A DNA stretch of 64,000 nucleotides from Escherichia coli (GTDB lineage Bacteria; Pseudomonadota; Gammaproteobacteria; Enterobacterales; Enterobacteriaceae): the NCBI RefSeq assembly GCF_024298765.1, contig NZ_CP101210.1. One strand, given 5' to 3'. A program made the translations under genes and the position numbers. The notes under the pieces were generated by a model. The model ran no database searches. It saw nothing but the letters and a program-made list of their open reading frames with translations, and had not been told where the DNA came from. This document shows, in pieces, positions 54,497-60,768 of the stretch (positions are counted from its first letter, which is position 1; the number at the start of each line of letters is the position of its first letter).

Positions 54497-56959
54497 TCAG
54501 ACTCCTAACTTCCATGAGAGGGTACGTAGCAGATCGGCAAAGACACCAGCAGCTGTAACGTCATTGCCCGCACCATATCCGCGCAGCACCAACGGCAGCG
54601 GCTGATAATAGTGGCTATAGAAGGCCAGAGCGTTTTCGCCATTTTTCACTTTGAACAGCGGATCATTACCATCCACTTCGGCAATCTTCACGCGGCAGAC
54701 GCCATCTTCATCAATATTGCCAACATAGCGCAAAACTTTTCCTTCATCACGGGCCTTCGCCACGCGCGCGGCAAAGAGATCGTCGAGCTGTGACAGATTC
54801 GCCATAAAAGCGGCAACATCACCCTCGGCGTTAAACTCAGTGGGCAGCACAGGTTCAATTTCAATATCCGCCAGCTCCAGTTCACGTCCCGTTTCACGAG
54901 CGAGAATCAATAGTTTACGCGCCACATCCATACCAGAAAGATCATCTCGCGGGTCCGGTTCGGTATAACCCATTTCCCGCGCCAGCGTGGTCGCCTCGGA
55001 GAAACTCATGCCTTCGTCTAACTTGCCGAAGATATAAGAAAGCGAACCTGAAAGAATGCCGGAGAACTTCATCAATTCATCACCTGCATTGAGCAGATTT
55101 TGCAGGTTCTCAATAACCGGTAATCCAGCCCCAACGTTAGTGTCATAGAGGAATTTACGCCGCGATTTTTCCGCCGCATGACGCAACAAATGGTAGTAAT
55201 CCATCGACGAGGTGTTGGCCTTTTTGTTCGGCGTAACAACGTGGAAACCTTCGCGCAGGAAGTCGGCATATTGATCCGCCACTGCCTGGCTGGAGGTGCA
55301 GTCAACAATGACCGGGTTCAGCAGATGATATTCTTTCACGAGGCGAATTAAGCGCCCGAGATTAAACGGCTCTTTGGCTTGCGCCAGTTCTTCCTGCCAG
55401 TTTTCCAGATTAAGGCCATGTACATTGGTGAGCAGAGCCTTCGAGTTGGCAACACCGCAGACACGTAAGTCGATATGTTTATTCTTCAGCCAGCTTTGCT
55501 GACGCTTCAGTTGCTCCAGCAGCGCACCGCCAACGCCACCGACGCCAATCACAAACACTTCGATAACCTGATCGGTATTGAACAGCATCTGATGAGTAAC
55601 GCGCACGCCAGTGGTCGCATCATCGTTATTTACCACGACAGAGATTGAGCGTTCAGAAGATCCCTGAGCAATGGCGACAATGTTGATATTGGCGCGGGCC
55701 AGCGCGGCAAAGAATTTCGCCGAGATCCCACGCAAGGTGCGCATACCATCACCTACCACCGAGATAATGGCCAGCCGTTCCGTCACCGCCAGCGGCTCCA
55801 GTAAGCCTTCTTTCAGTTCCAGGTAGAACTCTTCCTGCATTGCCCGTTCAGCTCGCACACAGTCGCTTTGTGGAACGCAGAAACTGATGCTGTATTCGGA
55901 AGATGATTGCGTAATCAGCACCACGGAAATACGGGCGCGTGACATCGCTGCAAAGACGCGCGCCGCCATGCCGACCATTCCTTTCATCCCCGGGCCGGAA
56001 ACACTGAACATTGCCATATTATTCAGATTGGAAATGCCCTTGACCGGTAATTCGTCTTCATCACGGCTGGCACCAATGAGCGTACCTGGTGCTTGAGGAT
56101 TTCCGGTATTTTTAATCAGGCAAGGGATCTGGAACTGGGCGATGGGGGTAATGGTGCGGGGGTGAAGAACTTTAGCGCCGAAGTAGGAAAGCTCCATCGC
56201 TTCCTGGTAGGACATCGACTTCAACAACCTCGCATCGGGCACCTGACGCGGGTCGCAGGTATAGACCCCGTCAACGTCCGTCCAAATCTCGCAACAATCG
56301 GCGCGTAAACAGGCAGCCAGCACCGCAGCAGAGTAGTCGGAACCGTTGCGTCCAAGCACCACCAGTTCGCCTTTTTCATTACCGGCGGTGAAACCTGCCA
56401 TCAGCACCATGTGATCAGCCGGAATACGACTTGCCGCAATACGGCGGGTGGACTCAGCAATATCGACGGTAGATTCGAGGTAATGCCCCACTGCCAGCAG
56501 TTTTTCGACCGGATCGATAACGGTAACGTTGTGACCGCGCGCTTCTAATACGCCGGCCATAATGGCGATCGACATTTTCTCGCCACGGCAAATCAGCGCA
56601 GCGTTGATGCTATCCGGGCACTGCCCCAACAAACTAATGCCATGCAGGACATGTTTTATTTGGGCAAATTCCTGATCGACGAAAGTTTTCAATTGCGCCA
56701 GCGGGAACCCCGGCTGGGCGGCGGCGAGTCCCGTCAAAAGTTCGGCAAAAATACGTTCGGCATCGCTGATATTGGGTAAAGCATCCTGGCCGCTAATGGT
56801 TTTTTCAATCATCGCCACCAGGTGGTTGGTGATTTTGGCGGGGGCAGAGAGGACGGTGGCCACCTGCCCCTGCCTGGCATTGCTTGCCAGAATATCGGCA
56901 ACCCGCAGAAAACGTTCTGCATTTGCCACTGATGTACCGCCGAACTTCAACACTCGCAT
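54497..56959 (-). CDS. thrA: Bifunctional aspartokinase I / homoserine dehydrogenase I
   Basis: 820 aa from ATG at 56959 ([17 protein letters not shown]); ORF track extension to 57001 rejected. Confidence 0.97.
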
Positions 56960-56983
56960 GGTTGTTACCTCGTTACCTTTGGT

Positions 56984-57021
56984 CGAAAAAAAAGCCCGCA
57001 CTGTCAGGTGCGGGCTTTTTT
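56984..57021 (-). terminator. thr attenuator (leader terminator hairpin)
   Basis: Minus strand AAAAAAGCCCGCACCTGACAGTGCGGGCTTTTTTTT between thrL and thrA. Confidence 0.85.
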
Positions 57022-57039
57022 CTGTGTTTCCTGTACGCG

Positions 57040-57108
<69 letters not shown>

Positions 57109-57149
57109 TGTTGTGTACTCTGTAATTTTTATCTGTCTGTGCGCTATGC

Positions 57150-57190
57150 CTATATTGGTTAAAGTATTTAGTGACCTAAGTCAATAAAAT
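57150..57190 (-). promoter_or_regulatory. thr operon promoter (approximate)
   Basis: Minus strand TTGACT -35-like hexamer with 17-bp spacer to TAACCA upstream of thrL; boundaries approximate. Confidence 0.45.
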
Positions 57191-57318
57191 TTTAATTTAC
57201 TCACGGCAGGTAACCAGTTCAGAAGCTGCTATCAGACACTCTTTTTTTAATCCACACAGAGACATATTGCCCGTTGCAGTCAGAATGAAAAGCTGAAAAA
57301 TACTTACTAAGGCGTTTT

Positions 57319-58005
57319 TTATTTGGTGATATTTTTTTCAATATCATGCAGCAAACGGTGCAACATTGCCGTGTCTCGTTGCTCTAAAAGCCCCAGGCGT
57401 TGTTGTAACCAGTCGACCAGTTTTATGTCATCTGCCACTGCCAGAGTCGTCAGCAATACCATGGCTCGTTTGCGTAAAGCTTGCAGTTGATGTTGGTCTG
57501 CCGTTGTGTCACTTTTCGCCGGTTGTTGTATTAATGTTGCTAATTGATAGCAATAGACCATCACCGCCTGCCCCAGATTGAGCGAAGGATAATCCGCCAC
57601 CATCGGCACACCAGTAAGAACGTCAGCCAACGCTAACTCTTCGTTAGTCAGCCCGGAATCTTCGCGACCAAACACCAGAGCGGCATGGCTCATCCATGAA
57701 GATTTTTCCTCTAACAGCGGCACCAGTTCTACTGGCGTAGCGTAGTAATGATATTTCGCCCGACTGCGCGCAGTGGTGGCAACAGTGAAATCGACATCGT
57801 GTAACGATTCAGCTAGTGTCTTGAAAACTTTAATATTATCAATAATATCACCAGATCCATGTGCGACCCAACGGGCGGCTGGCTCCAGGTGTGCCTGACT
57901 ATCAACAATCCGCAGTTCGCTAAAACCCATCGTTTTCATTGCCCGCGCCGCTGCCCCAATATTTTCTGCTCTGGCGGGTGCGACCAGAATAATCGTTATA
58001 CGCAT
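57319..58005 (-). CDS. lasT: Putative tRNA/rRNA methyltransferase (SpoU family)
   Basis: 228 aa from ATG at 58005 (MRITIILVAPARAENIGAAARAMKTMGF). Confidence 0.88.
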   Translation of the reverse strand: MRITIILVAPARAENIGAAARAMKTMGFSELRIVDSQAHLEPAARWVAHGSGDIIDNIKVFKTLAESLHDVDFTVATTARSRAKYHYYATPVELVPLLEEKSSWMSHAALVFGREDSGLTNEELALADVLTGVPMVADYPSLNLGQAVMVYCYQLATLIQQPAKSDTTADQHQLQALRKRAMVLLTTLAVADDIKLVDWLQQRLGLLEQRDTAMLHRLLHDIEKNITK

Positions 58006-58404
58006 ATTGCCACTCTTCTTGATCAAATAACCGCGAACCGGGTGATCACTGTCAACTTATTACGCGGTGCAAATTTACAAACTCTTAACGTAAGTCGCAG
58101 AAAAAGCCCTTTACTTAGCTTAAAAAAGGCTAAACTATTTCCTGACTGTACTAACGGTTGAATTGTTAAAAAATGCTATATATCCTTCTGTTTACTTAGG
58201 ATAATTTTATAAAAAATAAATCTCGACAATTGGATTCACCACGTTTATTAGTTGTATGATGCAACTAGTTGGATTATTAAAATAATGTGACGAAAGCTAG
58301 CATTTAGATACGATGATTTCATCAAACTGTTAACGTGCTACAATTGAACTTGATATATGTCAACGAAGCGTAGTTTTATTGGGTGTCCGGCCCCTCTTAG
58401 CCTG

Positions 58405-58545
58405 TTATGTTGCTGTTAAAATGGTTAGGATGACAGCCGTTTTTGACACTGTCGGGTCCTGAGGGAAAGTACCCACGACCAAGCTAATGATGTTGTTGAC
58501 GTTGATGGAAAGTGCATCAAGAACGCAATTACGTACTTTAGTCAT
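58405..58545 (-). CDS. yjjY: Small hypothetical ORF (46 aa); weak call
   Basis: ATG at 58545 (MTKVR...) at the position of annotated yjjY upstream of arcA; no independent support. Confidence 0.3.
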   Translation of the reverse strand: MTKVRNCVLDALSINVNNIISLVVGTFPQDPTVSKTAVILTILTAT

Positions 58546-58640
58546 GTTACGCCGATCATGTTAATTTGCAGCATGCATCAGGCAGGTCAGGGACTTTTGT
58601 ACTTCCTGTTTCGATTTAGTTGGCAATTTAGGTAGCAAAC

Positions 58641-59357
58641 ATGCAGACCCCGCACATTCTTATCGTTGAAGACGAGTTGGTAACACGCAACACGTTGAAA
58701 AGTATTTTCGAAGCGGAAGGCTATGATGTTTTCGAAGCGACAGATGGCGCGGAAATGCATCAGATCCTCTCTGAATATGACATCAACCTGGTGATCATGG
58801 ATATCAATCTGCCGGGTAAGAACGGTCTTCTGTTAGCGCGTGAACTGCGCGAGCAGGCGAATGTTGCGTTGATGTTCCTGACTGGCCGTGACAACGAAGT
58901 CGATAAAATTCTCGGCCTCGAAATCGGTGCAGATGACTACATCACCAAACCGTTCAACCCGCGTGAACTGACGATTCGTGCACGCAACCTGCTGTCCCGT
59001 ACCATGAATCTAGGTACTGTCAGCGAAGAACGTCGTAGCGTTGAAAGCTACAAGTTCAATGGTTGGGAACTGGACATCAACAGCCGTTCGTTGATCGGCC
59101 CTGATGGCGAGCAGTACAAGCTGCCGCGCAGCGAGTTCCGCGCCATGCTTCACTTCTGTGAAAACCCAGGCAAAATTCAGTCCCGTGCTGAACTGCTGAA
59201 GAAAATGACCGGCCGTGAGCTGAAACCGCACGACCGTACTGTAGACGTGACGATCCGCCGTATTCGTAAACATTTCGAATCTACGCCGGATACGCCGGAA
59301 ATCATCGCCACCATTCACGGTGAAGGTTATCGCTTCTGCGGTGATCTGGAAGATTAA
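58641..59357 (+). CDS. arcA: Aerobic respiration control response regulator ArcA
   Basis: 238-aa OmpR-family [36 protein letters not shown]. Confidence 0.97.
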
Positions 59358-59374
59358 TCGGCTTTACCACCGTC

Positions 59375-59405
59375 AAAAAAACGGCGCTTTTTAGCGCCGT
59401 TTTTA
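59375..59405. terminator. Bidirectional terminator between convergent arcA and creD
   Basis: AAAAAAACGGCGCTTTTTAGCGCCGTTTTT. Confidence 0.8.
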
Positions 59406-59415
59406 TTTTTCAACC

Positions 59416-60768
59416 TTATTTCCAGATACGTAATTCATCGTCCATTGTAACGTCTTTACTGGCTTTCATTTTCGGCAGTGAAAACGCATACCAGTCGATA
59501 TTACGGGTCACAAACATCATGCCAGCCAGCGCCACCACCAGCACACTGGTTCCCAACAACAGCGCGCTATCGGCAGAGTTGAGCAGTCCCCACATCACAC
59601 CATCCAGCAACAACAGCGCGAGGGTAAACAACATGCTGTTGCACCAACCTTTCAATACCGCCTGCAAATAAATACCGTTCATTATCGCCCCAATCAGACT
59701 GGCGATTATCCATGCCACGGTAAAACCGGTATGTTCAGAAAGCGCCAGCAAGAGCAAATAAAACATCACCAATGAAAGCCCCACCAGCAAATATTGCATT
59801 GGGTGTAAACGTTGCGCGGTGAGCGTTTCAAAAACAAAGAACGCCATAAAAGTCAGTGCAATCAGCAGAATGGCGTACTTAGTCGCCCGGTCAGTTAATT
59901 GGTATTGATCGGCTGGCGTCGTTACTGCGACGCTAAACGCCGGGAAGTTTTCCCAGCCGGTATCATTGCCTGAAGCAAAACGCTCACCGAGATTATTAGC
60001 AAACCAGCTGCTTTGCCATTGCGCCTGAAAACCTGACTCACTAACTTCCCGTTTGGCTGGTAGAAAATCACCTAAAAAACTGGGATGCGGCCAGTTGCTG
60101 GTTAAGGTCATTTCGCTATTACGCCCGCCAGGCACCACAGAAAGATCGCCGGTACCGCTTAAATTCAGTGCCATATTCAGCTTCAGGTTCTGCTTCCGCC
60201 AGTCCCCTTCGGGTAAAGGGATATGCACGCCCTGCCCGCCTTGCTCTAACCCGGTGCCGGGTTCAATGGTCAGCGCCGTTCCGTTAACTTCAGGCGCTTT
60301 CACCACACCAATACCACGCGCATCCCCGACGCTAATCACAATAAATGGCTTGCCTAAGGTGATATTTGGCGCGTTGAGTTCGCTAAGACGCGAAACATCG
60401 AAATCGGCTTTTAGCGTTAAATCACTGTGCCAGACCTGACCGGTATAAATCCCTATCTTGCGTTCTTCCACGTTCTGATTGCCATCAACCATCAATGACT
60501 CAGGTAACCAAAAATGGATAAAACTTCGTTTCCGCTCCACGGTTTTATCCTCTTCCTGCACCGTATAAAGCTCGGTCACAGGAATAGCGATGAGCGGCCC
60601 AACGAGTTTTTGCGGCCCGCTGGTACTTTGGCGAATCGCATCTTCCACATCGCTACGGTAATCAGCACGTTCGACAATCACCTGCCGAATCAGCATTATC
60701 GGAATCAACAACAGCAATACTGCACCAAACAGGCTAGTCATTTTCCAGAACAGGGGGGATTTCAACAT
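59416..60768 (-). CDS. creD: Inner membrane protein CreD
   Basis: 450-aa membrane ORF. Confidence 0.93.
   Translation of the reverse strand: MLKSPLFWKMTSLFGAVLLLLIPIMLIRQVIVERADYRSDVEDAIRQSTSGPQKLVGPLIAIPVTELYTVQEEDKTVERKRSFIHFWLPESLMVDGNQNVEERKIGIYTGQVWHSDLTLKADFDVSRLSELNAPNITLGKPFIVISVGDARGIGVVKAPEVNGTALTIEPGTGLEQGGQGVHIPLPEGDWRKQNLKLNMALNLSGTGDLSVVPGGRNSEMTLTSNWPHPSFLGDFLPAKREVSESGFQAQWQSSWFANNLGERFASGNDTGWENFPAFSVAVTTPADQYQLTDRATKYAILLIALTFMAFFVFETLTAQRLHPMQYLLVGLSLVMFYLLLLALSEHTGFTVAWIIASLIGAIMNGIYLQAVLKGWCNSMLFTLALLLLDGVMWGLLNSADSALLLGTSVLVVALAGMMFVTRNIDWYAFSLPKMKASKDVTMDDELRIWK

Follow-up and report, generated by a model that had tools for sequence, protein, structure and literature searches.

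The 64,000-nucleotide stretch of E. coli DNA that we analyzed (hereafter, the window) contains a 635-bp gap at positions 58006–58640 between lasT, on the minus strand, and arcA, on the plus strand. lasT (57319–58005, with its ATG start at 58005; annotated as yjtD in K-12) encodes a SpoU-family tRNA/rRNA methyltransferase (NCBIfam NF007752, 428 bits; Pfam SpoU_methylase) and forms the left border, while arcA (58641–59357; NCBIfam NF008378, 503 bits), which encodes a response regulator, forms the right border. The gap is the largest of 53 in the window, for which crude gene calls give a median of 56 bp. Its GC content is 38.1%, compared to 51.9% for the window, with a minimum of 29–33% at 58100–58400 and values of 42–45% in the proximal 250 bp. 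The initial annotation, made from the sequence alone, described a long, AT-rich leader of arcA with exactly these borders. Length and composition held, but the term leader suits only the proximal 200–300 nt, which is the documented arcA leader; the interval as a whole is a divergent intergenic region. Its distal half (58006 to about 58325) must hold the lasT promoter or promoters, and we infer that a distal arcA promoter also lies within 58006–58325.

The only annotated open reading frame (ORF) in the gap is yjjY, 46 codons at 58405–58545 on the minus strand, which lies within the arcA leader in antisense orientation, reading away from arcA and in the same direction as lasT. The claim that it is the sole ORF is correct for annotated ORFs but not overall, as five other frames of 25–31 codons lie wholly within the gap and three more enter from its edges (25 codons on the minus strand, 100 codons antisense to lasT, and 57 codons antisense to the start of arcA). 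Scanning 56900–59500 with the Rfam 15 covariance models at E <= 1 gave no match inside 58006–58640. The only real Rfam match near the region was a Thr leader at 56985–57104, and weak matches at 59339–59486, extending from the arcA-creD gap into the 3′ end of creD, fell far below threshold and were set aside. A scan for consensus promoters and terminators returned a single promoter-like site on the minus strand (58564–58535) and no terminators, no more than shuffled sequence is expected to yield.

We compared the region across 67 unique sequences, 47 close and 20 more distant, drawn from YjjY-encoding contigs, a DNA-pattern scan of metagenomes, and six loci obtained by an ArcA search of genome contigs. 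The metagenome contigs come without taxonomic assignment, and the sequences lack phylogenetic independence; the counts given here are uncorrected for relatedness. The AT-rich distal half (58006–58325) is fast evolving, with a mean column conservation of 59% in 45 Enterobacteriaceae sequences and short islands only, and it evolves about neutrally. A perfect 10-bp palindrome in this half, CAACTAGTTG (58262–58271), is present in several genera in our alignments, and a CTAG between yjjY and lasT has been noted in the literature as conserved in Salmonella. The proximal ~315 bp (58326–58640) is probably the functional core of the region; it is 97–99% identical across Enterobacteriaceae genera. For arcA in the same 40 genomes, third codon positions are 65.3% identical and first and second positions 98.2%. 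By block, mean pairwise identity is 98.4% for 58326–58379, 96.9% for 58402–58545, 86.5% for 58546–58590, and 98.9% for 58591–58640. The short spacer at 58380–58401 has 64.7% identity, equal to that of arcA third positions. Within E. coli, 25 of the 26 differences from the window found in three strain comparisons are distal.

The conserved upstream block (58326–58379, plus strand) contains a TACAAT hexamer (58339–58344) and an FNR box, TTGATATATGTCAA (58350–58363), that matches TTGAT-N4-ATCAA at nine of ten positions. The 64-kb window has a single occurrence of this FNR-like pattern, compared to 0.43 expected by chance. In ten genome-derived sequences that were not selected by pattern, the box is invariant except for its last base, which nine of the ten sequences keep; Vibrio has a perfect box. 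Downstream of the spacer, which is variable in sequence and nearly constant in length, an ArcA-type direct repeat, TGTTATGTTGCTGTTA (58403–58418, plus strand), consists of two TGTTA elements (TGTTA-N6-TGTTA) spaced 11 bp center to center and overlaps the -35 region of the arcA promoter. The window has no second copy of the repeat, against a chance expectation of 0.03. In 66 of the 67 sequences, FNR box and repeat lie at a distance of 53 bp; Photorhabdus shares this spacing, and in Vibrio it is shorter by 10 bp, or one helical turn. The -10 hexamer of the FNR-activated promoter, TAGGAT (58426–58431, plus strand), is TAGGAT or TAGTAT in 65/67 sequences. Repeat and -10 hexamer are jointly kept in 65 of the 67, neither having been part of the search pattern, and the same repeat with TAGAAT is present in Vibrio and Haemophilus.

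Compan and Touati reportedly described the upstream regulatory region of E. coli arcA in 1994. The Reg-Seq supplement (PMC7567609), citing Compan & Touati, places the FNR-activated start site at K-12 position 4640508, which corresponds to 58439 in the window; we checked the coordinate mapping against published arcA mutation coordinates. In the same one-line citation, the supplement calls this start site one of many for arcA. The FNR box is centered at 58356.5, or -82.5 relative to this start. Upstream of the arcA start, Reg-Seq mapped one site for FNR as activator and one for CpxR as repressor, assigning FNR dependence from footprints together with growth conditions and mass spectrometry (PMC7567609). 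Its anaerobic footprint peaks at -90 to -86 and -80 to -76 (58349–58353 and 58359–58363), which are the two FNR half-sites; further signal at -37 to -34 falls at the start of the ArcA-type repeat, and a peak at -14 to -11 and -9 to -7, relative to 58439, falls on TAGGAT (PMC7567609). Autoregulation of arcA has been reported or predicted in the literature, and from its sequence the repeat at 58403–58418 may be bound by ArcA. Insertions also fall in this region. An IS186 insertion at K-12 4640557 (about 58390, in the spacer) arose in an evolution experiment; in the mouse gut, IS insertions upstream of arcA are adaptive, and they increase its expression under anaerobic conditions. The multiple promoters and complex regulation anticipated by the initial annotation are thus borne out by the several start sites that the supplement indicates and by the FNR and CpxR sites (PMC7567609). 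Its suggestion of binding sites also has concrete candidates in the deeply conserved FNR box and ArcA-type repeat.

The yjjY frame resembles a protein gene in some respects. It matches NCBIfam NF052365 (YjjY family) at 96.5 bits against a cutoff of 70, although a Pfam search with its product returned no match, and predicted homologues with 83–96% identity are found in Klebsiella, Enterobacter, Raoultella, Salmonella, and Siccibacter. Among the 47 close sequences, 35 have an intact frame, including those from E. coli, Salmonella, Klebsiella, and Citrobacter; 46 begin with ATG or GTG, and the insertion of 6 nt in Salmonella preserves the frame. The remaining 12 comprise 11 frames shifted by +1 or +2 indels, some of which occur in two or more contigs, and one that lacks a start (AAG). 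At least four independent +1/+2 indels swap the C-terminal half of the product in several genera and leave the surrounding nucleotides unchanged. Sequences of intermediate similarity carry in-frame stops at conserved length, and none of the 20 distant sequences has an intact frame, while the promoter module is still kept.

The pattern of variation argues against selection on a protein. Variable sites at first, second, and third codon positions number 11, 11, and 7 in yjjY compared to 35, 7, and 209 in arcA, such that 7/46 third positions vary in yjjY versus 209/238 in arcA. This pattern departs from that of arcA (binomial p = 4e-12) and not from a uniform one (p = 0.33), and we found no third-position excess that would indicate purifying selection on YjjY. 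Conservation extends past both ends of the ORF and is equally high outside it. A 46-codon ORF arises in 81% of dinucleotide shuffles of the region, or 50% if only ATG starts are allowed, and the sequence preceding the start varies and contains no Shine-Dalgarno match. In the papers surveyed among those naming yjjY, we found no report that the protein has been detected; both an FRT scar and transposon insertions within yjjY are described as acting through arcA regulation. We judge yjjY, from its sequence variation, to be conserved regulatory sequence that stays open by chance rather than a conserved protein gene, the frame remaining open because the underlying sequence barely changes. Since 35 of 47 frames are intact, starts are kept in 46, and the Salmonella insertion preserves the frame, there may be a lineage-restricted or N-terminal YjjY peptide. 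The initial annotation had considered coding support for yjjY weak and proposed setting conservation of the frame against non-coding conservation. That comparison favors its view, as constraint operates at the nucleotide level. Both outcomes that it named as refuting fail: yjjY shows no protein-level selection, and the literature gives arcA more than one start site.

Published data indicate that the leader is also transcribed in antisense. Capture of RNase III double-stranded RNA (dsRNA) with p19 yielded cluster S-383 (K-12 version 2 4,638,370–4,638,791, about 58179–58600 in the window), which was classed as a full overlap of yjjY and, according to the same paper, was also recovered by an independent dsRNA pulldown. 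Both strands are therefore transcribed over ~420 bp that include the whole yjjY frame. By genomic SELEX, RpoD holoenzyme binds the arcA-yjjY spacer, and the accompanying table proposes a minus-strand promoter in the yjjY direction (TTGCCA 58626–58621, a 19-bp spacer, and TACAAA 58601–58596). Its -10 is weak and is TACAGA or TACAGC in more distant taxa. Our scan placed no terminator-like site between yjjY and the co-directional lasT.

Transcription from the published FNR-activated start site gives arcA a 202-nt 5′ leader (58439–58640, plus strand), in which we noted four potential hairpins. H1 (58451–58479) has a G-rich arm GUCGGGU and a C-rich arm ACCCACGAC; intermediate-similarity sequences and Photorhabdus have a G-rich/C-rich hairpin at the corresponding position, and all the frame-breaking +1/+2 indels of yjjY sit in its loop (58462–58470). 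H2 (58502–58520) is an inverted repeat, TTGATG-N7-CATCAA, whose arms are kept while its spacer varies in length and content; in distant sequences it reads TTGATA...TATCAA. H3 (58551–58583) shows compensatory changes. One of its pairs occurs as AU 11 times, GC 8, GU 7, and CG once; 94–95% of cells are paired, compared to 33–47% when partners are slid, and there are 10–15 double-change cells versus 1.9–4.4 in shuffles, for a structure that was derived from the same sequences. The G-U pairs of H3 fit the plus strand only. H4 (58588–58608), CAGGGA-N9-UUCCUG followed by U-rich UUUCGAUUUAGUU, is nearly invariant in close relatives, and five of its six pairs never vary. The last 50 bp (58591–58640) form a nearly invariant block with the arcA Shine-Dalgarno AGG (58630–58632), in which UAGGUAGC is kept even in Photorhabdus.

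Global measures of structure were negative. The folding energy of the leader did not differ from that of shuffled sequences on either strand (z = -0.04 for the leader and 0.00 for the antisense), and RNAalifold over all 67 sequences found almost no shared structure; outside H3, the leader is too invariant for covariation analysis. The ~100 nt at 58440–58545 are nearly invariant among close relatives, and no site that we identified accounts for their conservation; we infer that this segment has a role in the arcA leader. The small RNA ArcZ is one candidate partner, as it increases expression from a translational fusion to arcA in Erwinia amylovora, where a site is predicted ~50 nt ahead of the start. 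Using an ArcZ sequence confirmed as RF00081 next to arcB, we found that its best duplex with the leader was no better than those with shuffled leaders, 63% of which were as good, and that a 7-bp CAGGGA/UCCCUG match was not kept beyond close relatives; ArcZ pairing is unsupported rather than disproved. A modeling preprint lists arcA among predicted CsrA targets. The leader also contains a 25-codon upstream ORF, MMLLTLMESASRTQLRTLVMLRRSC (58487–58564, plus strand), which is open in most close relatives, has a variable C terminus, and loses its start in distant ones; a Salmonella ribosome-profiling preprint describes a translated small ORF upstream of arcA, opposite yjjY. Two other plus-strand upstream ORFs (58379–58462 and 58558–58635) were rejected as genes, being interrupted in many relatives, and none of the three shows a coding signature. 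The regulatory RNA raised by the initial annotation gains ground from the published transcripts of both strands and from the covariation in H3, but not from Rfam, where no family matched.

In our assessment, the 635 bp are quite likely a shared lasT/arcA divergent control region with a proximal regulatory core, in which yjjY is not maintained as a protein. An FNR dimer at 58350–58363, centered 82.5 bp upstream of 58439 in a class I-type position, would activate a weak sigma-70 promoter with its -10 TAGGAT at 58426–58431. The ArcA-type repeat would occupy the -35 region of this promoter, an arrangement that would allow autoregulation. Transcription from 58439 would produce the 202-nt leader, and other start sites upstream, and possibly downstream, would give longer and shorter ones. 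The leader is under strong nucleotide-level selection, would carry at least one selected hairpin (58551–58583) just upstream of the ribosome-binding region, and according to published data is also transcribed in antisense. More tentatively, the ~240 nt at 58402–58640 might be conserved as an uncharacterized post-transcriptional element of the sense leader that adds an RNA-level input alongside FNR. In that case, a platform of ~100 nt (58440–58545), H3, and H4 with its U-rich tail would be bound by a regulator such as an sRNA with Hfq, CsrA, or the antisense transcript.

Other readings distribute the conservation differently. If RNA-level function of the sense leader, as a structured element or a platform for proteins or sRNAs (CsrA or Hfq-dependent sRNAs such as ArcZ), controlled arcA translation or stability and were the main source of the extreme conservation, DNA-level promoter elements would matter less. 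Continuous identity of 97–99% extends for ~240 nt beyond the start site, a greater length than that of typical transcription-factor sites, and the compensatory changes and plus-strand G-U pairs of H3, the sequence-divergent hairpins at the same position in distant taxa, and the H2 arms kept around a varying spacer all fit such a function, as do the Erwinia ArcZ effect and the CsrA prediction. We nevertheless find this reading doubtful, though possible: neither strand folds better than shuffles, no Rfam model matches at E <= 1, RNAalifold finds almost nothing shared among 67 sequences, the ArcZ duplex is no better than chance with a CAGGGA site confined to close relatives, and most of the block is invariant, so that covariation is assessable mainly in H3, whose structure comes from the same sequences. 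It is less likely still that the locus works as an excludon-like switch, in which a minus-strand transcript from near 58590–58600 runs through yjjY toward lasT and forms duplexes with long arcA leaders that RNase III cleaves, thereby setting the output of arcA (and lasT). The S-383 cluster and its independent recovery, RpoD binding with the proposed minus-strand promoter, and the lack of a terminator-like site between yjjY and lasT are consistent with a switch of this kind, but the proposed -10 is weak and altered in distant taxa, the G-U pairs of H3 and H4 point to the sense strand, and published orientation-biased insertions reading toward arcA fit promoter read-in as well as loss of antisense.

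Least probable of all is that yjjY is a genuine gene for a small (membrane-associated) protein whose coding constraint contributes to the conservation of 58405–58545. The equivalog-level match to NF052365, homologues in several genera, the intact frames and starts, the in-frame Salmonella insertion, and RpoD binding with a proposed promoter reading in the yjjY direction speak for such a gene. Set against these are the scarcity of third-position changes and the lack of any favored position class, the frame-breaking indels and in-frame stops, conservation that is equal outside an ORF of chance length, a start lacking a Shine-Dalgarno, FRT-scar and insertion phenotypes attributed to arcA regulation, and the silence of the surveyed yjjY literature on protein detection.

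Under the reading that we prefer, a divergent control region with a proximal core, these results bear on how data from the locus are read. ArcA regulates respiratory metabolism globally, and adaptive insertions of IS elements and transposons have repeatedly hit the region upstream of arcA, both in laboratory evolution and in the mouse gut. If yjjY is regulatory sequence, results of "yjjY" knockouts, TraDIS, and mutation-target studies would be arcA cis-regulatory phenotypes. The constraint map, consisting of the FNR box, fixed-length spacer, ArcA repeat and -10, and leader hairpins, provides a design for dissecting arcA control. From the verdict on yjjY, it would further seem that a doubtful annotation is being spread by a curated protein-family model: the window frame matches the YjjY family model, yet we found no purifying selection on the protein, and the conservation of the family probably arises because the nucleotides themselves are constrained.

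At class I FNR- and CRP-dependent sigma-70 promoters, the activator is centered near -61.5, -71.5, -82.5, or -92.5. The arcA promoter resembles these in having its FNR box at -82.5, followed by a spacer of fixed length and free sequence, and in Vibrio the box sits one helical turn nearer. Class II promoters, with the activator at -41.5, make up most of the well-studied FNR promoters. Unlike these, the arcA promoter has its -35 region covered by the ArcA-type repeat, an arrangement that makes co-dependence on ArcA plausible. Long 5′ leaders of global regulators, such as those of rpoS, csgD, and flhDC, serve as post-transcriptional hubs. The arcA leader, a candidate hub, is similarly long (at least 200 nt) and highly conserved, with hairpins near the ribosome-binding site and ArcZ control reported in Erwinia, but the pairing test with ArcZ was negative for the E. 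coli leader. As in excludons and other RNase III-processed pairs, both strands of arcA-yjjY are transcribed over ~420 bp and captured as dsRNA, although reciprocal regulation is hypothetical here. The closest comparison is the E. coli arcA upstream region itself, the same locus, where the published Reg-Seq footprints coincide with the conserved motifs that we describe (PMC7567609) and nothing differs in kind. Published papers supply the start site, its dependence on FNR, the evidence that both strands are transcribed, and the fitness effects of insertions; the conservation pattern, motif architecture, lack of a coding signature, and covariation in one hairpin are our own observations. Our additions are the evolutionary picture of a neutral distal half and an ultra-conserved proximal half, the depth to which the ArcA repeat and -10 are conserved, and the assessment of yjjY as probably non-coding. 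The region is a multi-promoter regulatory region of an already known kind, and these additions refine it with the general picture unchanged.

The arcA upstream region lies in the order thrA, thrL, lasT/yjtD (all on the minus strand), gap (58006-58640), arcA (plus strand) and creD (minus strand). The initial annotation had singled it out as unusually long and AT-rich, and both features hold: the gap is exactly 635 bp, the largest among 54 crude gene calls in the window (median gap, 56 bp), and its GC content is 38%, compared to 52% for the window. Its 635 bases are 100% identical to E. coli strain 104 and 99.4% identical to K-12, and they are present in 5,423 of 5,426 complete genomes. The cautious interpretation attached to this correct observation is also supported; the gap is a known multi-promoter regulatory region, FNR-controlled and with a long conserved leader, and is probably also under ArcA control. 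Beyond lasT, the thr operon leader (56985-57104, minus strand) gives a full-length match to Rfam RF00506 (121 bits). Its hairpin at 56986-57023 gives a weak score on the plus strand as well and thus resembles a terminator acting in both directions between lasT and thrL. Beyond arcA, sub-threshold Rfam hits at 59339-59486 (STnc240, sraA, PrrB/RsmZ and others; 18-27 bits) fall in the hairpin-rich arcA-creD gap, running into the creD 3′ end, and most likely reflect a bidirectional terminator.

Since a genome scan based on ArcA returned mainly distant response regulators, we turned to two other sources of orthologous loci: contigs with genes for YjjY-like proteins (Klebsiella, Enterobacter, Siccibacter and Salmonella) and metagenomes, which were scanned for a 25-base pattern common to E. 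coli and Photorhabdus, TTAACGTGCTACAAT-N5-TTGAT-N4-GTCAA. These sources yielded 67 unique sequences, each spanning the pattern to the arcA start: 47 close sequences, with ≥88% identity to E. coli and from several Enterobacteriaceae genera as judged by LasT best hits, and 20 distant ones (six at 67-71% identity, 13 at 55-59%, and Photorhabdus at 53%). All loci with lasT share the lasT-arcA arrangement and have a gap of ~600-640 bp. In Photorhabdus, which is missing lasT, the thr leader directly adjoins the region upstream of arcA; at the Photorhabdus caribbeanensis locus (L003, 1700-2500), the FNR box, the ArcA-type repeat and the ~300-nt distance to arcA are kept, and the stretch equivalent to yjjY is unrecognisable.

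Mean column conservation in the distal half (58006 to ~58325) is 59%, with short islands only; the proximal ~315 bp hardly vary. Mean pairwise identity was 98.4% for 58330-58379, 64.7% for 58380-58401, 96.9% for 58402-58545, 86.5% for 58546-58590 and 98.9% for 58591-58640. The arcA genes of the same 40 genomes served for calibration, with 98.2% at first and second codon positions and 65.3% at third positions. Because it resembles the latter, the 22-bp, GC-rich spacer at 58380-58401 is neutral in sequence, evolving at the speed of synonymous sites. Its length is nearly fixed, with 53 bp between the FNR box and the repeat in 66 of the 67 sequences. Within E. coli, three strain comparisons placed 25 of 26 differences from the window in the distal half. 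This otherwise fast-evolving half contains a perfect 10-bp palindrome, CAACTAGTTG (58262-58271), kept in E. coli, Citrobacter, Klebsiella, Enterobacter and Salmonella. A conserved island, TTACGC-N6-AATTTAC (58056-58082), lies ~50-75 bp upstream of the lasT start; we guess from its conservation that it may be the minus-strand lasT promoter.

The suggestion of multiple promoters and complex regulation agrees with published work. A passage of the Reg-Seq supplement (PMC7567609), citing Compan & Touati (1994), describes the mutagenised arcA start site, K-12 4640508, as one of many and expected to be FNR-activated. With the arcA start codon at K-12 4,640,306 (checked against the published M39I coordinate), this site corresponds to 58439 and the leader to 202 nt. 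An FNR box, TTGATATATGTCAA (58350-58363), matches the FNR consensus at 9 of 10 positions and is centred at -82.5 from 58439, a class I-type position. Downstream lie a direct repeat, TGTTATGTTGCTGTTA (58403-58418), and, 7 nt after it, the -10 hexamer TAGGAT (58426-58431). The repeat has the 11-bp direct-repeat form of ArcA-P sites, and we infer that ArcA binds it. Each pattern occurs once in 64 kb, where chance would give 0.43 occurrences of the FNR box and 0.03 of the repeat. The low-oxygen Reg-Seq footprint peaks at -90 to -86 and -80 to -76 (58349-58353 and 58359-58363, the two FNR half-sites), at -37 to -34 (58402-58405), and at -14 to -11 and -9 to -7 (58425-58432, the TAGGAT hexamer). Thus, the conserved motifs fall on bases where mutation has an effect. 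The FNR box-to-repeat spacing is the same in Photorhabdus as in E. coli and 10 bp shorter in Vibrio. The repeat, with TAGAAT, also precedes arcA in Vibrio and two species of Haemophilus, with a leader there of only ~70 nt.

The annotated 46-codon yjjY frame (58405-58545, minus strand) points away from arcA, towards lasT. Described initially as the only ORF, it is the longest of several frames contained entirely within the gap. Since frames of at least 46 codons arise in 81% of dinucleotide shuffles, its existence carries no weight. Open frames are also common around the gap: a 100-codon frame (57859-58161, plus strand) running antisense to the 5′ end of lasT and one of 57 codons (58587-58760, minus strand) antisense to the arcA start are both probably meaningless. 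Predicted YjjY proteins are 93-96% identical in Klebsiella and Enterobacter, and the neighbouring LasT is only 76-86% identical across genera. This high identity is nucleotide rather than protein conservation, and it extends beyond the frame on both sides. Variable columns at codon positions 1, 2 and 3 number 11, 11 and 7, compared to 35, 7 and 209 for arcA in the same genomes; the yjjY pattern is not distinguishable from uniform (p = 0.33) and differs strongly from that of arcA (p = 4e-12). Among the 47 close sequences, 35 frames are intact, 11 are shifted by indels of +1 or +2 nt and one has AAG for its start. All of these indels fall within one hairpin loop (58462-58470), some are present in at least two contigs, and at least four frame-breaking events are independent. 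A +6 indel in Salmonella keeps the frame; in the Salmonella enterica locus (L091), a tandem TAATGA duplication at ~58485 lengthens it to 48 codons and also moves the start of a plus-strand upstream ORF. None of the 20 distant sequences has an intact frame, while the FNR box, repeat, -10 and ribosome-binding region are still there. The weak coding support first ascribed to yjjY is therefore borne out, and the proposed comparison with non-coding conservation reveals no protein-level selection. Three plus-strand upstream ORFs likewise lack a coding signature. One of 25 codons (58487-58564), starting ATGATG, is open over its full 78 nt in 44 of the 47 close relatives, though with a variable C-terminus. 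At about this place, opposite yjjY and upstream of arcA, translation of an sORF in Salmonella has been reported in a ribosome-profiling preprint.

Regulatory RNA or binding sites had also been envisaged. The binding sites are represented by the conserved FNR box and ArcA-type repeat, and a covarying hairpin is found in the leader; the gap contains no Rfam match, and neither strand of the leader folds more stably than shuffles. We distinguished four local hairpins. H1 (58451-58479) has a loop prone to indels. In H2 (58502-58520), the arms are retained as TTGATG/CATCAA or, in distant taxa, TTGATA/TATCAA; because the spacer between them changes length, they are more consistent with an RNA hairpin than with a site bound by a dimer. 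H4 (58588-58608) shows almost no variation. H3 (58551-58583) sits in the one moderately variable block, and its variation is largely compensatory: one pair occurs as AU (11), GC (8), GU (7) and CG (1), and the adjoining position switches partner. Paired cells make up 94-95%, compared to 33-47% with slid partners, and double-change cells number 10-15, compared to 1.9-4.4 in shuffles (observed values reached by 8 and 1 of 500), in a test that derives the structure from the same, related sequences. On the minus strand, the many G-U pairs would become A-C mismatches, which makes arcA sense RNA the likelier folded strand. These covariations give moderate support to H3 as a selected arcA leader hairpin. 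The leader at 58440-58545 barely varies among close relatives, a constraint not accounted for by any identified element.

Published data also place transcription and selection here. RpoD holoenzyme binds the arcA-yjjY spacer, and RNase III dsRNA capture yielded a cluster at ~58179-58600 covering all of yjjY. Both strands are thus transcribed, and part of the arcA-sense RNA must originate >460 nt ahead of the start codon. In evolution experiments, transposon insertions are enriched in yjjY, mostly oriented towards arcA. A yjjY FRT scar raises fitness and a kanamycin-marked deletion lowers it, effects that the original authors assign to arcA regulation. IS insertions in the region increase anaerobic arcA expression, with a selection coefficient of ~0.09 in the mouse gut. 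One evolved IS186 insertion (~58390) falls inside the 58380-58401 spacer and would break the coupling between FNR box and core promoter. The natural isolate E. coli IAL7255 (L216, 1468-2541) carries an IS with an integrase-core transposase directly upstream of the conserved proximal block (junction ~58306-58325), the same kind of event that laboratory and gut evolution select for. Expression of an arcA translational fusion in Erwinia is raised by ArcZ; a computed test for ArcZ pairing with the E. coli arcA leader was negative.

Our analysis adds a quantified constraint map of the arcA upstream region, evidence for an ancient ArcA-repeat/-10 core, moderate evidence for one selected leader hairpin (H3) and a clear negative for protein-level selection on yjjY. 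Rather than introducing a new kind of element, these additions refine existing knowledge.
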